Positions 9,431 through 13,534 of a stretch of DNA of 26,810 nt are shown one piece after another. The notes below the pieces were generated by a model. The model searched no databases, was not told the DNA's origin, and saw only the letters and a list, made by a program, of their open reading frames with translations. The translations under genes were made by a program, and so were the position numbers. Numbering within the stretch: the first letter of the stretch is position 1; each line of letters begins with the position of its first letter. This stretch comes from a virus (lineage: Duplodnaviria; Heunggongvirae; Uroviricota; Caudoviricetes): the IMG/VR virus record IMGVR_UViG_2740892035_000001, positions 1-26,810 of that record; one strand, given 5' to 3'.

Positions 9431-9566
9431 TAGGTTTCGTTTGTAATGAGTCATGTTTTTTGAGTCCGATAGTAGACAGCTAGAGGGATAAATGATTAAT
9501 AGATAGATTAAACATAGTGATGGGCGTAAAATCGCGCGCATTTTATTGGCAACGGATCTGAACTCA

Positions 9567-10460
9567 ATGGCGGATAAGACTCAATCAGTAAGTATTGTGT
9601 ATCAAGGCAAAGCTCTCGACGATCATAAGATGGATATTCTTTCGTTTGCGAAAAGTTTGCAGGGGCTAGGTGAGGCTATCTACTCTGCAAATGAGATTGT
9701 AAACGGAGGGCGAGACATTGAAGTTAACGTTGACGCTGAATTGATAGCCGGTTCCTTTGGGTTTGATATTGAGGTTGTACAACATCTAGCTAATGCTAAA
9801 GATGTTGTACAAATTTTAGGTTTGTCAGCCATTCCTTTAGCCGTTGGCGGTGCTACAGTTTTAGAGGTTCTCAAGAAGCTTAACGGGCGTAAGATCGACA
9901 TAGTCGAGAAAGCTAACGGTAGTGACAAAGTTAAGCTGAAAGTCGATGGTGAAGAGATTGTTTGCTCTGAAGATGTCGAAAAAATCGTTAATGCCCCAGA
10001 GATTCGTAAGGCTGTTGACGCGTTTGTCAGACAGCCTCTGTTACAAGATGGTATCGACAATTTTGTGGTAAAAAAATCGCGCACCTCTAAGAAAGAAATC
10101 CTCAAAATTCATAAAGATGAGGCAGAAGAGTTTAAGTCGCCAAAAGTTCTCTTTGAAACCAAAGAAGAAGTTGACGAATTTGAAACAACCGTGACATTCG
10201 TTTCGGCGCATACTGACAAAAAAAGTGGCTGGCGTGTTGAGTTTGGCGGTGAAAAGCGCAATGTCAGAATGGAAGATAATGAGTTCATCAAGCTTGTTAC
10301 TGGACCAGACGCCCCCAAAATTTTTGGCGAATTGTTTGCTGTGAAGATGAAGAAAATTGTGAAAGATTCCGGTGGCCAGGTAGACGAAAAGTTATCGATC
10401 ATCAAAGTGGGTCGACACTTTGCCGCCAAAGATAGAAAAATAAAACCTGATGCGGATTAA
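9567..10460 (+). CDS. Accessory cargo protein X, ~297 aa, soluble, no recognisable motif (track start 9546 is a TTG)
   Basis: Long open frame in an AT-rich insert; first gene of a tightly coupled three-gene operon. Confidence 0.6.
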   Translation: MADKTQSVSIVYQGKALDDHKMDILSFAKSLQGLGEAIYSANEIVNGGRDIEVNVDAELIAGSFGFDIEVVQHLANAKDVVQILGLSAIPLAVGGATVLEVLKKLNGRKIDIVEKANGSDKVKLKVDGEEIVCSEDVEKIVNAPEIRKAVDAFVRQPLLQDGIDNFVVKKSRTSKKEILKIHKDEAEEFKSPKVLFETKEEVDEFETTVTFVSAHTDKKSGWRVEFGGEKRNVRMEDNEFIKLVTGPDAPKIFGELFAVKMKKIVKDSGGQVDEKLSIIKVGRHFAAKDRKIKPDAD

Positions 10461-10462
10461 AA

Positions 10463-10726
10463 ATGTCTATAGATATTAGTGTGTTAGGATGGTTGGGGCT
10501 GCTTGTTGCAGCTCCAGCTATATTTATAGGTGCTAGAGTGGCTATACGTAGCCTGCTCGATCGAGTTATTGTCGAAACAAAAGTTTCTATCACTTATACT
10601 GATGCAAACAAAAATGTCTATAAAACAAATATTTATATAAACAATGATGATGAGTTAATAAAGCTCATCGATGATATAGCAGAGAAAAATAAGCGTGAGA
10701 GGAAGGAGTCAGCCTCTCATGCCTGA
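10463..10726 (+). CDS. Accessory small membrane protein Y, 87 aa, one N-terminal TM helix plus charged C-terminal tail
   Basis: ISVLGWLGLLVAAPAIFIGARVAI hydrophobic segment; starts 2 nt after X stop. Confidence 0.55.
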   Translation: MSIDISVLGWLGLLVAAPAIFIGARVAIRSLLDRVIVETKVSITYTDANKNVYKTNIYINNDDELIKLIDDIAEKNKRERKESASHA

Positions 10727-11135
10727 ACAAAAGAAAACAAGCGGTAAAGCAGTCGGTGTTACAGGTGGCGGCGGTGTAGGCCTTTTCCTAATAAAGCTGG
10801 CTAGCTTCATTACAGATCCAACATGGAAAGACCTTTACATTGCTTCAATACCGATGGTGTCAATTCTTTTAAGCGAAGTTTTTACTTTTGCATGGACGAT
10901 TTATGCTGTTGATCCGCAAGAAATCAAACTGAAAAGGCGGTTGAAGGCTCTGAAGAAGCAAGCCGAAGCAGTTTTAAATGCACCATCGTCCCCTGTTTCT
11001 CCAGAAATGCGAGAGAAAGCGCAGGCTCGTTACGACGTGATCTGTGGAATTGAAATGGGAATTTACCCCCTCTCAATTGTAAATACGCTAGATGGAAAAG
11101 TATCCCCCACAGCGCAAACGCCGGACGTTAAATAG
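10719..11135 (+). CDS. Accessory membrane protein Z, 138 aa, two TM helices then soluble C-terminus
   Basis: ATG 10719 with AGGAAGGAG SD; overlaps Y by 8 nt; hydrophobic segments GVGLFLIKLASFI and IASIPMVSILLSEVFTFAWTIYAV. Confidence 0.55.
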   Translation: MPEQKKTSGKAVGVTGGGGVGLFLIKLASFITDPTWKDLYIASIPMVSILLSEVFTFAWTIYAVDPQEIKLKRRLKALKKQAEAVLNAPSSPVSPEMREKAQARYDVICGIEMGIYPLSIVNTLDGKVSPTAQTPDVK

Positions 11136-11200
11136 CAGTTTCTACTTTGCATGACTATGCTGCATGAAATCGCATGATCGTTTGAGGATCGTTTTTGCAA

Positions 11201-11227
11201 AAGCCCGCCAGAACTGGCGGGCTTTTG
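11201..11227 (+). terminator. Rho-independent terminator (GCCCGCC stem, 6-nt loop, TTTT tail) ending the X-Y-Z operon
   Basis: AAAGCCCGCCAGAACTGGCGGGCTTTT read directly. Confidence 0.7.
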
Positions 11228-11271
11228 CGTAGAGCATGCATCTGCATGAAAACCACTACATAAAGCGGGCA

Positions 11272-11290
11272 GGCGTGGCGGGGATACGAG
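11272..11290. other. Candidate cos (cohesive end) core: GGCGTGGCGGGGATACGAG
   Basis: First 13 nt match the G-rich 5' part of the 19-nt P2/186 cohesive end as recalled; lies between the accessory operons on the Q-proximal side. Confidence 0.35.
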
Positions 11291-11377
11291 CGCGCGCAAT
11301 AGGGTTATGTACAATAAATTTTTGACGATCTTCGAGTGTTATTAGCTTGAGGCTGTCAGGGAAAATGAATACAATAA

Positions 11378-11409
11378 GAAGCGCCTAGCAGAATGTTACT
11401 AGGCGCTTC
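11378..11409 (-). terminator. Hairpin (11-bp perfect stem GAAGCGCCTAG / CTAGGCGCTTC, 10-nt loop) downstream of the minus-strand micro-ORF operon
   Basis: Inverted repeat read directly; the minus-strand transcript would have a U-rich tract after it. Confidence 0.5.
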
Positions 11410-11442
11410 GAATATATAACCTGTATGACTTTCTTAACCTAC

Positions 11443-11550
11443 TTATCTTTTTGATTTCTTCTTCGTATCATCGTGATCGAATACTTGGCGGGTAGGCGGC
11501 TTGCTGGGTGGTGGCGGCGGCGGTAAATTAGATTTCTCATTTTTGCTCAT
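11443..11550 (-). CDS. Polyproline micro-ORF 1 (35 aa): MSKNEKSNLPPPPPPSKPPTRQVFDHDDTKKKSKR
   Basis: ATG-initiated; overlaps the stop of micro-ORF 2 by 14 nt; paralogous to micro-ORFs 2 and 3; below the ORF-track size cutoff. Confidence 0.45.
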   Translation of the reverse strand: MSKNEKSNLPPPPPPSKPPTRQVFDHDDTKKKSKR

Positions 11551-11671
11551 CTTTATTTTTCCTATTTTTTGGATCATTGCCATAGCTTTCTCTAACTAAC
11601 CGAGTGATTGGCGGTTTAGGTGGTGGTGGTGGTGGTGCTTCATTTTTTTTAGGATTTTTGTGTTCGGTCAT
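11537..11671 (-). CDS. Polyproline micro-ORF 2 (44 aa): MTEHKNPKKNEAPPPPPPKPPITRLVRESYGNDPKNRKNKDEQK
   Basis: In-frame ATG inside track ORF 11537-11725 (whose first M is a TTG); hexaproline tract; overlaps micro-ORF 3. Confidence 0.45.
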   Translation of the reverse strand: MTEHKNPKKNEAPPPPPPKPPITRLVRESYGNDPKNRKNKDEQK

Positions 11672-11786
11672 TTTTATCGTCCTTTCTGTCTCTTCGTAGT
11701 TGCCTTGCTTTTGAATCATCTTCAATAACGATCCTTCTTGCGGGTGGAGTAGGCCGAGGAGGTGGTGGCGGTAACGGTTTGGTCAT
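11649..11786 (-). CDS. Polyproline micro-ORF 3 (45 aa): MTKPLPPPPPRPTPPARRIVIEDDSKARQLRRDRKDDKNDRTQKS
   Basis: ATG overlaps the TAA stop of the upstream membrane protein gene (TAATG); translated by hand from the reverse complement. Confidence 0.45.
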   Translation of the reverse strand: MTKPLPPPPPRPTPPARRIVIEDDSKARQLRRDRKDDKNDRTQKS

Positions 11787-12436
11787 TAAGTTCTCCTGAC
11801 ATTTTCAATAGGTATTATCAAATAGTTAGGGGCGTTATTTTTCCGCGGTGATGCTGCATCTAAATCAGCTAAAAGAAATATGACTACTGCTGCGATAATT
11901 GGAATCCATGACCAGACAAGATACTTTGTTGACTCAAATAGTTTACTGGAACGTTCCTCATTGATATTACTGTTCCAGCTAGCACACTCTCTGATTTCTT
12001 GATGAATAAACTCCCAAAGTTTATTATCAGGGTTATAACTTTCATCGTATGTAAGTCCATTGTCATCGCAATATTTTTTATATTTCACTTCGTAACTAAT
12101 CAGATCTATGTGATAATCATGCAATGCTTTAGGTGCAGGGCAATACTTAAATTCATTTCCCCATATGACTTGTTTCAACAGAATTGATGATACAAGAACT
12201 AAGCCAAATGAAATTGCGGTACATAAAAATACTAGGCAAGCTAGCCTTGGGTGGGATTCATAAGATGTGTTTTTGGCGAGATAAGTGAGTATAGTTGCGG
12301 TAATGACAACTAATCCGAATTCGGCTTGAGCGCGAGTATGTATCTTGTCTTTATTCTCAATTTCTGAGAAATAAAGTTTTTCGTAAAATTCTAATGCTTT
12401 ATCCTTTTTCATTTTTAGATTCAGTGTGATGTCCAT
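11786..12436 (-). CDS. Accessory integral membrane protein, 216 aa, ~3 TM helices, no recognisable motif
   Basis: Hydrophobic segments FGLVVITATILTYLA, LACLVFLCTAISFGLVLVSSILL and YLVWSWIPIIAAVVIFLLA; AT-rich; between portal gene and cos-like motif. Confidence 0.6.
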   Translation of the reverse strand: MDITLNLKMKKDKALEFYEKLYFSEIENKDKIHTRAQAEFGLVVITATILTYLAKNTSYESHPRLACLVFLCTAISFGLVLVSSILLKQVIWGNEFKYCPAPKALHDYHIDLISYEVKYKKYCDDNGLTYDESYNPDNKLWEFIHQEIRECASWNSNINEERSSKLFESTKYLVWSWIPIIAAVVIFLLADLDAASPRKNNAPNYLIIPIENVRRT

Positions 12437-12469
12437 GTATCAAACATATCACGATAACAAAAAAAGAAA

Positions 12470-12487
12470 AGCCGCAATTCTGCGGCT
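12470..12487 (-). terminator. Rho-independent terminator after the portal gene (AGCCGCA stem, ATTC loop, then U-rich tract on the minus strand)
   Basis: On the minus strand the hairpin is followed by TTTTCTTTTTTTG. Confidence 0.65.
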
Positions 12488-12496
12488 GTTGGGAAG

Positions 12497-13534
12497 CTAA
12501 TCTAGCGATAATTCGTAATTTGTGAACCCTATCGCGTTTTTATCCAGCCATTTATTAAGCTCCTCAAAGCGTCTCTGAAGCGGAATAAGTTCATTACGAA
12601 CGAATACGCGGCTGGCCTTCTCCACATCCCCAAATCCCCCAACATTATTAGGCATAATCCCCATCATTTGCGGTGGCACACGATGCGCCGCCATCATGTC
12701 ATCCCGGCTCACGTTCTTGATGTTTAGAAACTCATCCTTCGCCGCGACTTCTGACAGAGGAATGATCTGAAGCCCATCCTTTTTGCCGTTAGGCGAGTAC
12801 ATAAACAGGTTGCGGAAGTTACCCGGTCCTTTGGCGCTTTTCATCGCATTGCGGAGGTTGTTCACATCCTCCTGGTTCTGCGCGGCATCGGTCATGTACA
12901 TGATGAAGCCTGCATGACTACCGTTAATGTAATACTTCCGGCGGAACAGCGTGGCGGACTCGTTGAGCAAAGCGGATGGGATGGCAGAAAGATAGCCGGG
13001 CAGGCCGTAGATCTCCTGATTAATATCCGGTTCCATCAGATGAAAAATGCTGCCTTTCGTGAACTGATACGGCTGGGTTGTCATACCGTATTGCACAAAC
13101 CAGTAGGTATCCAGGTCTAACCCGCGTCGGGTATATTTTGCCAGAGCAGGCTCAAGGGCGATAACTTCACCGAAGCGGTTCGTGCGTTTCTCCAGATAGG
13201 CGTTACCAAATACCAGATAGTCCTGCACAAAACGTGAAAAAGCCTGCTGGCTGAGCAGCGGGTGAGGGATGTAGGTACTGGTCAGTATGTTGCATTTCAC
13301 CGCAATTGGTGAACTGTGATGCACGGCAGCGCGGAAGGTGCGCGCCAGTCCGTCAAAGCTTACTGGCGGCTCATACCAGCGATCTGTCTGTACGCATTCC
13401 ACATAGTCCAGCAGTTCTCGGCGGTCCAGAACAGGAACGGGATCGCCGAAGCTGAATGCTTCGGCTGTAGTTTGACTTTTAAGCTGGATCTGTTTCGTCG
13501 CCGAAGCGCGGTTCTTCTTACTCTTTCCCATCAA
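12497..13534 (-). CDS. Q: Portal protein (P2 gpQ family), 345 aa
   Basis: Size and position as P2 Q, overlapping the terminase gene by 4 nt in the divergent Q-P operon. Confidence 0.9.
   Translation of the reverse strand: MMGKSKKNRASATKQIQLKSQTTAEAFSFGDPVPVLDRRELLDYVECVQTDRWYEPPVSFDGLARTFRAAVHHSSPIAVKCNILTSTYIPHPLLSQQAFSRFVQDYLVFGNAYLEKRTNRFGEVIALEPALAKYTRRGLDLDTYWFVQYGMTTQPYQFTKGSIFHLMEPDINQEIYGLPGYLSAIPSALLNESATLFRRKYYINGSHAGFIMYMTDAAQNQEDVNNLRNAMKSAKGPGNFRNLFMYSPNGKKDGLQIIPLSEVAAKDEFLNIKNVSRDDMMAAHRVPPQMMGIMPNNVGGFGDVEKASRVFVRNELIPLQRRFEELNKWLDKNAIGFTNYELSLD

Follow-up and report, generated by a model that had tools for sequence, protein, structure and literature searches.

Organization of the cos-Q cassette

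The window, the whole 26,810-nucleotide stretch of DNA that was analyzed, spans positions 1 to 26,810 of IMG/VR record IMGVR_UViG_2740892035_000001, which derives from a virus of the Caudoviricetes, a P2-like prophage of Escherichia coli. Between the portal gene Q (12497-13534) and the cos site, the minus strand carries a compact operon (window 11378-12451) composed of a putative promoter, a gene for a small membrane protein, three overlapping micro-open reading frames (micro-ORFs) that specify proline-rich peptides, and a dedicated terminator. The micro-ORFs are real and are co-inherited with the membrane gene. A first-pass annotation of the sequence had described an AT-rich cassette in a cargo position between Q and a cos-like motif, and this placement is borne out. 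The upstream limit is the predicted portal-operon terminator tQ (12470-12487, minus strand), whose equivalent is annotated in phage P2, and the downstream limit is the cos core GGCGTGGCGGGGATACGAG (11272-11290, strand unassigned) which aligns to P2 cosL. The GC content is 0.34-0.42 in the cassette compared to 0.51-0.62 in the adjacent structural genes, and the distance from cos to the Q stop codon is 187 bp in P2 but 1225 bp here, which indicates that ~1 kb of AT-rich DNA not present in P2 has been inserted.

The membrane gene (11786-12412, minus strand) encodes an α-helical protein of 208 amino acids with three predicted transmembrane (TM) helices. The first-pass annotation placed a ~3-TM protein of 216 residues directly after the portal terminator. 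This longer reading frame exists (11786-12436) and the TM helices are predicted by AlphaFold2 (AF2), but homologues and the PGAP annotation favor the start codon at 12412 and the 208-residue product. The ATG of the longer form (12434-12436, minus strand) is located exactly 7 nt past the conserved -10 hexamer described below, at the predicted transcription start, so that a leaderless 5′-AUG mRNA is possible in the Escherichia coli lineage. This ATG is missing from other lineages, in which the start is the downstream ATG.

The TAA stop codon of the membrane gene and the ATG of micro-ORF1 have one base in common in a TAATG junction. Micro-ORF1 (11649-11786; 45 amino acids, MTKPLPPPPPRPTPPARRIVIEDDSK...) includes the type-A motif RRIVIEDD and has orthologues in 15 loci. 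Micro-ORF2 (11537-11671; 44 amino acids, MTEHKNPKKNEAPPPPPPKPPITRLVRESYGNDPK...) has orthologues in 14 loci, and micro-ORF3 (11443-11550; 35 amino acids, MSKNEKSNLPPPPPPSKPPTRQVFDHDDTKKKSKR), which bears the type-B motif R-x-[VA]-F-D-H-D-D, has orthologues in 15 loci. All are on the minus strand. The first two micro-ORFs overlap by 23 nt and the latter two by 14 nt, the ATG-to-ATG distances are 115 and 121 nt, and the three occupy three different frames. The lengths, ATG codons and overlaps agree with those that were first proposed.

Just downstream of the portal terminator is a putative extended -10 promoter, TGATATGTT (12443-12451, minus strand; TGn followed by TATGTT). The sequence TG(A/C)TATGTT was found 35-45 nt before the start codon in every Enterobacterales locus, including non-P2 contexts (loci L005 and L016). 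Judged by this consensus, the element may act as a promoter. The late Ogr-type promoter motif TGT-N12-ACA was sought and not found, and a late promoter of this type was rejected. The conserved extended -10 element together with the missing late-promoter motif suggests expression in the lysogen, with an operon that is likely to be transcribed autonomously and probably constitutively. The operon ends in an intrinsic terminator (11378-11409, minus strand) with a 13-bp stem and a T-rich tail. A σ70-like match, TTGAGG-17-TACAAT (11347-11375, plus strand), is aimed into the cassette from the cos side and would drive antisense transcription across the micro-ORFs; σ70-like matches are no more numerous than expected from shuffled sequences.

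The micro-ORFs are genuine genes

Conservation of the micro-ORFs was assessed in 15 orthologous loci, whose membrane proteins share 51-100% identity with that of the window. Initiation codons were ATG throughout, except for GTG in two cases, and the stop/start overlaps between neighboring genes were retained. A Shine-Dalgarno (SD) site of the AGGAG or AAGGA type was present at 37 of 41 distinct micro-ORF starts; in the window AGGAG lies 7 nt ahead of the micro-ORF1 ATG and AAGGA precedes that of micro-ORF2. Pooled ratios of non-synonymous to synonymous polymorphism (pN/pS) were 0.48, 0.55, and 0.31 for micro-ORF1, micro-ORF2, and micro-ORF3, respectively, which denotes moderate purifying selection. 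Each orthologue set has its own characteristic tail: RR[IV]VIEDDSK in the first, R[LM][VI][RK]E[SN]Y in the second, and R.[VA]FDHDD.KK in the third.

The loci that were fetched included Enterobacter P4-like elements, Cedecea and metagenomic P2-like prophages, Pantoea, and IMG/VR contigs. Proline-rich micro-ORFs were located downstream of the membrane gene on the same strand in all loci of close relatives, mostly as three copies but as two in one locus. Single micro-ORFs related to micro-ORF3 follow homologues with 31% identity (L022 and L023). PGAP calls only the membrane protein and the middle micro-ORF, leaving micro-ORF1 and micro-ORF3 unannotated. The PGAP/RefSeq version of micro-ORF2 has 60 amino acids from an upstream ATG (MIQKQG..., L001 9238-9420, equivalent to window 11537-11719), an extension that is not conserved in other loci.

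The first-pass annotation assigned the genes to the minus strand, with expression of glycine-rich frames on the plus strand as the competing outcome. On the plus strand, two ORFs that begin with TTG and GTG do read GGGGGG followed by a hydrophobic tail. Codon periodicity cannot distinguish the strands as the glycine and proline frames share their wobble position. However, the glycine frames carry stop codons in most orthologous loci, on which grounds plus-strand glycine-rich peptides were rejected, and that of the third unit terminates after a few residues. The hydrophobic plus-strand tails arise because they are the antisense image of Lys, Glu, Asp, and Asn codons. Programmed frameshifting that joins the ORFs also was rejected: the frame relation is +1 here but +2 in L005, and each ORF has its own SD site and start codon. 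In-frame variation in the length of the proline tract was discarded as evidence of coding because a CCN repeat slips in triplets whether or not it is translated.

Flanking motifs, but not the proline homopolymer, are conserved

The sequence (CCN)5 occurs at three sites in the cassette (five overlapping matches between 11507 and 11771, all on the minus strand), compared with an expectation of 0.04 in shuffled sequences. The first-pass description of three tandem ~120-bp units holds insofar as the units are paralogous and regularly spaced, but they are only ~62% identical in DNA. Tandem Repeats Finder reported only a GGT run and missed the ~120-nt units, although a repeat search recovered the G-rich cores at spacings of 115 and 133 nt. 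Given the low identity and the failure of detection, the units are old paralogues rather than a recently formed tandem array. The proline run of micro-ORF2 (window 11619-11637; also L002 and L008-L011) varies among near-identical prophages and comprises 6, 7, 8, or 9-10 prolines, variation that is attributable to slippage of the CCA/GGT triplet repeat.

The pattern [L/A]PPPPPP-x-(K/P)PP with a charged tail, which had been noted at first, is present in the window, but the homopolymeric run is not conserved in relatives. Instead, hexaproline is swapped for (TPP)n, (PPQ)n, PPSSPQPP, or PxxP-type stretches. The parts that are conserved are an N-terminal M-[ST]-x-N-[ED]-K, a proline-rich spacer, and a [RQ]-hydrophobic-hydrophobic-x-[ED] motif. 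Read from these alignments, the pattern appears to be the signature of a peptide ligand and not of an arrest or leader peptide. Ribosome-arrest and leader peptides such as SecM, TnaC, ErmCL, and polyproline sensors provide a poor precedent as it is the flanks and not the homopolymer that are maintained, and as micro-ORF3 is followed by a terminator and not by a gene that might be regulated. Thus, polyproline stalling is not supported as the defining property, with dependence of the peptide supply on EF-P a possible secondary feature.

The units also had been considered as noncoding, cos-flanking elements to which terminase binds. A Rfam scan of the units returned nothing meaningful, and the 187-bp cos-Q interval of P2 contains no such repeats. 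The distance from the last micro-ORF to the cos core ranges from 61 to 3107 nt among loci, and the units accompany the membrane gene into contexts that lack cos, including non-phage contexts. The variable distance to cos and their absence from P2 rule out a role for the units in cos recognition; terminase recognition repeats were rejected for these reasons, for the occurrence of cos-free contexts, and in view of the coding signatures.

An unannotated family of membrane proteins

The AF2 model of the window protein has a pLDDT of 86. An amphipathic N-terminal helix runs into TM1 (residues 2-48) and is followed by TM2 (55-84), a soluble helix (94-117), and a helix that runs into TM3 (128-181). 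Sixteen orthologues share 53-86% identity with the protein. Close relatives are few, forming 17 clusters that all belong to the Enterobacterales where the source names an organism, but a family profile retrieved 957 representative clusters at E ≤ 1e-3. The motifs FYEKxYF, WGNxYK in a loop after TM2, and DxDxSSPRK after TM3 are conserved in the family.

The first-pass annotation recognized no named defense or lysis module at the locus, and this impression persists. Neither the 208-residue protein nor the micro-ORFs matched Pfam, PADLOC, or NCBIfam (none at E < 1 for the protein), a search of PDB sequences with the family profile produced no relative, and blastn and tblastn comparisons with 50,697 phage records yielded no match. 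In PHROGs, only phrog_36961, a family with no assigned function, was matched. The lysB and lysC genes of the phage are located elsewhere.

When 143 relatives were compared with PADLOC, weak matches emerged to PycTM (15 hits over three models, the best at 2.8e-6), RTasSLATT (five hits), and the CBASS 2TM effector (six hits). These involve approximately one in six of the relatives and extend over most of the model length. One relative matched NCBIfam SLATT_5 with E = 0.047. The 25 Pfam families listed at E ≤ 0.01 among the relatives include no SLATT family and nothing consistent. The matches are a lead toward membrane-disrupting abortive-infection effectors rather than proof of membership, and the membrane protein possibly is a distant relative of the PycTM, SLATT, and 2TM suicide effectors.

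The SD sites that are prevalent at the micro-ORFs (37 of 41) are rare at the membrane gene, where only one of 11 distinct upstream regions has such a site. This difference suggests that the peptides are produced in excess of the membrane protein.

Fused and split forms of the protein pair

Many members of the family are 250-310 amino acids long and continue beyond TM3 and DxDxSSPRK through a helical linker into a proline-rich module, e.g., ...YMSDKKPPPPPPQAPARPIARVFNDEALPKSSK. Three arrangements occur in loci from metagenomes and isolates: the tail is fused and no micro-ORF follows, a fused tail is accompanied by a separate, overlapping micro-ORF, or a short protein is followed by one to three micro-ORFs. 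Vibrio harveyi exemplifies the second arrangement, with a fused tail and a separate overlapping micro-ORF, MSRDKPSPPPPPTPPTPPPSRLIKDGYPKPNKK; other Vibrio and metagenome loci have fused tails, separate micro-ORFs, or both. In a metagenome-assembled genome (MAG) of the Campylobacterota, a homologue with 25% identity is followed by a micro-ORF that overlaps it at an ATGA junction, MSNNDETPATPKESPPPPPPRHRRGYVKPPKKK. A search for the repeat family in P2-like prophages, which had been suggested initially, revealed that it recurs in these prophages, in P4-like elements, and in distant lineages. The pairing of membrane protein and proline-rich module extends across the family, and sequence comparisons place the pairing of the membrane protein with a proline-rich micro-protein in different phyla, with examples that range from Vibrio to soil bacteria, where it is essentially unannotated.

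A Met codon precedes the module in the fused genes. An SD-like site accompanies this codon in 11 of 17 distinct loci compared to 8% of the other ATG codons in these genes (p = 5e-9), with the caveat that the charged linker may be rich in GGAG-like codons. The SD-like site at the junction Met suggests that the free peptide may arise by internal initiation in fused genes.

Predicted contact between the juxtamembrane loop and the tail motif

Only two strands of at least three residues are present in the AF2 model (pLDDT 76) of a Vibrio homologue with a fused tail: Y88-K-G90 in the WGNxYK loop and R286-S-V288 in the tail motif. Being the only such strands in the model, they presumably form a pair. 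At 64, the pLDDT of the tail block exceeds that of its flanks (38-51), and the pairing of the R-hydrophobic-hydrophobic-x-acidic motif with the WGNxYK loop is a prediction of low confidence. The classes of loop and tail also covary: R-type tails accompany FWGN loops (32:0), and Q-type tails, Q-x-S-T-E-S-Y, accompany LTG loops (11:1), an association (Fisher's p = 1.6e-9) that is confounded by clade structure.

Application of the positive-inside rule to the 143 members positioned the N-terminus, the helical bundle, and the WGNxYK loop on the side rich in Lys and Arg, with a net charge of +2.6 compared to -0.75 on the opposite side. The former is presumed to be cytoplasmic, in which case free peptides that lack a signal could reach the loop. 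No signal peptide, lipobox, Cys, or hydrophobic segment is present in the sequences of the split micro-proteins.

Genomic context and distribution

The cassette occupies the gpA-cos-gpQ hotspot for cargo genes described in P2 (Rousset 2022; PMC9122126). Relative to cos, it lies on the side of Q and follows tQ, whereas the exclusion genes old and tin lie on the A side (PMC9122126). Occupancy is variable: P2 has no insert, identical or near-identical cassettes were found in six of 5426 complete E. coli genomes, and the same cassette also is harbored by P4-like satellites and elements. The 208-residue protein appears as system 96 in the earlier survey with 33 occurrences, the description "2 TM," and no domain (Rousset 2022, Table S5B; PMC9122126). 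The middle micro-ORF corresponds to WP_061090207, which is included there only as "hypothetical," and the micro-ORFs were not recognized as part of system 96 (PMC9122126). A search of the literature and supplements with the motifs, accessions, and terms for polyproline and defense uncovered no description beyond those tables.

More distant members of the family inhabit comparable settings. A member in a soil P2-like phage is beside a portal gene whose product is 60% identical to that of the window, and the neighbors of distant members include integrases, IS66, TnsE, ArdC, AIPR, HsdR-like, TIR-like, and caspase-like proteins, ParE/Phd cassettes, and an OLD-family nuclease. In the Campylobacterota MAG (L007 1388-4274), a 256-residue ORF is located upstream of the homologue and its single micro-ORF; downstream are, as recognized by eye, a 129-residue protein whose FISHSW motif is TIR-like and a 324-residue caspase-like protein with AGHG and CHSG motifs. 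These neighbors suggest a larger defense island or a multi-gene system. In two marine members (L040 from ~4290 and L043 from ~3680), a long ORF with an HsdR-like N-terminus, again assigned by eye, is directly downstream. The fused homologue of Vibrio rarus (L064 4513-5766) adjoins two ParE/Phd toxin-antitoxin pairs. Cassette arrays of Vibrio superintegrons typically have this layout.

The A side of cos in the window also bears cargo. A 304-residue protein (9546-10460, plus strand) matches the PADLOC candidate PDC-S42 (E = 8e-44), the NCBIfam entry "LAPAL motif," and phrog_3243. It is followed by a 146-residue ORF (10695-11135, plus strand) with a Gly run and hydrophobic stretches that probably specifies a membrane protein, has no family match, and precedes a terminator near 11200-11230. 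E. coli 639 has an identical Q-side cassette but is missing this ~1.6-kb A-side block, and strain WS0115A has other genes at the A side, so that the two sides of cos assort independently.

Discussion

The cassette is tentatively viewed as a membrane effector that is gated by micro-protein ligands and that acts in phage exclusion or abortive infection in the manner of a toxin-antitoxin system, an interpretation that is the foremost of those considered here although it falls somewhat short of an even chance. The three proline-rich micro-proteins would be cognate peptide ligands of the 3-TM membrane protein. Each would consist of a short M-[ST]-x-N-[ED]-K segment, a spacer likely to resemble a polyproline-II helix, and the R-hydrophobic-hydrophobic-x-acidic motif that may dock as a β-strand on the cytoplasmic juxtamembrane WGNxYK loop. 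The peptides, well translated from strong SD sites, would keep closed a membrane effector that lacks an SD site and is translated poorly. The effector then would be freed by infection or by a loss of the peptide supply, and might permeabilize the membrane and thereby abort the infection or exclude a competing phage. The analysis shows that the genes are real, that the pairing extends across the family, that it takes fused and split forms, and that it is found on mobile elements or in hotspots; we infer the docking, the direction of regulation, the damage to the membrane, and the anti-phage role.

Comparison with established systems is instructive. Like the PycTM, SLATT, and CBASS 2TM effectors, members of the family are small α-helical proteins with a TM hairpin and cytosolic helices, and are encoded in defense islands and on mobile elements; the AF2 model contains the N-terminal helix running into TM1, TM2, and a helical hairpin, with an extra TM3. 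Unlike those effectors, the family has this third TM helix, the conserved DxDxSSPRK exit motif, and proline-rich micro-proteins as partners. No gene for a cyclase, SMODS/CD-NTase, or reverse transcriptase that might generate an activating signal was found in or beside the operon in the window and the loci examined. The compact operon, the translational coupling, and the juxtaposition of a membrane protein of low translation with well-translated partners recall toxin-antitoxin modules that have small protein antitoxins, but there is no sequence relation to any toxin-antitoxin family, the membrane gene is first, and there are three peptide paralogues. The possibility that one ORF yields two products through in-frame internal starts is reminiscent of the dual-start logic of holins and antiholins. 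As cargo of the P2/P4 cos hotspot, the cassette is typical in its locus, AT-richness, and rarity but differs in its position on the Q and not the A side of cos.

Several considerations weigh against the gated-effector interpretation. The window protein itself matches no defense or SLATT model, the weak similarity of its relatives could reflect TM composition, and fold searches with the protein returned only generic helical bundles. The strand pairing between loop and tail is predicted weakly and the supporting covariation follows clades. Moreover, there is a conflict in topology: in fused homologues the tail emerges from TM3 across the membrane from the proposed docking loop and could not contact it in cis, a discrepancy that might be explained by a dynamic TM3 or by internal initiation. 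A toxin-first gene order with three antitoxin-like peptides is unusual, and a role of the peptides as activators or adaptors is equally plausible. Finally, system 96 does not appear in the table of cloned systems that was consulted and so apparently was not tested for protection (Rousset 2022; PMC9122126).

The main rival, although unlikely, is superinfection exclusion or another envelope function without suicide, e.g., the blocking of DNA entry, with the proline-rich modules as structural partners or as arms that span the periplasm. This role would suit a membrane protein that is encoded by a prophage behind a putative, conserved σ70 promoter and in a location where exclusion genes, e.g., old and tin, are known to occur. 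The fused homologues also possess a 55-residue helix and a proline-rich spacer after TM3 on the predicted periplasmic side, and resemble TonB, TolA, and the o-spanin Rz1 in combining a TM anchor, a rigid proline-rich spacer, and a short terminal motif for β-strand addition. However, the resemblance is without homology and without a C-terminal globular domain. The three micro-proteins have neither a TM segment nor the signal peptide with a lipobox Cys that typifies Rz1 and so cannot reach the periplasm unaided, and the AF2 model and covariation point to a loop in the cytoplasm.

An elaboration of the gated-effector interpretation, which is rather improbable in its full form, is that the proline-rich micro-proteins of 33-55 residues, whether from separate ORFs or internal starts, would be a new class of peptide gatekeepers of a widespread family of membrane pores. 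In view of their long polyproline runs, their supply could depend on EF-P and elongation capacity, and a phage-induced collapse of translation would open the pore. A sensor of the translation state, as raised in the first-pass annotation, whose signal is EF-P-dependent pausing on polyproline and whose peptides serve as leaders or arise as by-products, is more doubtful again. The presence of 6-12 consecutive prolines at codons 5-20 of translationally coupled ORFs and the polymorphic length of the run in near-identical prophages are compatible with such a sensor. Nevertheless, relatives dispense with the homopolymer while retaining flanks and C-terminal tails that are under moderate purifying selection, the operon closes with a terminator and not a regulated gene, and the same motif forms the C-terminal tail of proteins of 250-310 residues.

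It is very unlikely that the peptides are exported effectors akin to bacteriocins or proline-rich antimicrobial peptides (PrAMPs) with the membrane protein as exporter or immunity protein, even if several small paralogous peptides beside a small membrane protein are laid out as in bacteriocin loci. The segment PRPTPPARRIV of micro-ORF1 is reminiscent of the PRPTPPRPIY segment of pyrrhocoricin. PrAMPs of the oncocin and pyrrhocoricin type provide no real parallel: the micro-proteins have no leader or signal sequence, their tails, in contrast to PrAMPs, are rich in Asp and Glu as well as Lys, and the motif is fused covalently to the membrane protein in many relatives, which ill suits a diffusible toxin. 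The proposition that the micro-ORFs are decayed, frameshifted, and non-functional remnants of a once-fused C-terminal tail, prompted by the fused relatives and by the three ORFs in three frames, is highly improbable as each micro-ORF has an orthologue set and specific motifs of its own alongside membrane proteins down to 51% identical, start codons and SD sites are kept, pN/pS values are below 1, and separate micro-ORFs occur in distant lineages too. The suggestions of plus-strand glycine-rich peptides, which draw on the two GGGGGG ORFs, and of terminase-binding repeats, which draw on the location of the units 150-500 bp from cos, already are contradicted by the stop codons, the early end of the third frame, the P2 interval, the variable or missing cos, and the empty Rfam scan, and are barely credible.

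Hotspot cargo with a membrane effector is of a known kind, but the proline-rich micro-protein component is not seen in comparable known systems. The family is a natural case of one peptide module that is fused, split, duplicated, and possibly internally initiated, and the motifs FYEKxYF, WGNxYK, DxDxSSPRK, and M[ST]xN[ED]K-Pro-rich-R-hydrophobic-hydrophobic-x-[ED] suffice for the construction of detection models. If the gated-effector interpretation is correct, a compact and unusually built module would be added to the anti-phage and prophage-cargo repertoire, and the Q side of the P2 cos site would be a cargo slot. The specificity or regulatory part of the module would consist of micro-proteins that annotation has missed almost entirely, with PGAP calling one of the three and from a non-conserved start. 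Should the peptides be gatekeepers, the defense sensor would be made of micro-proteins instead of an enzyme. The interpretation then would furnish a proposal of function for a family of ~1000 clusters that has no model in Pfam, PADLOC, or NCBIfam.

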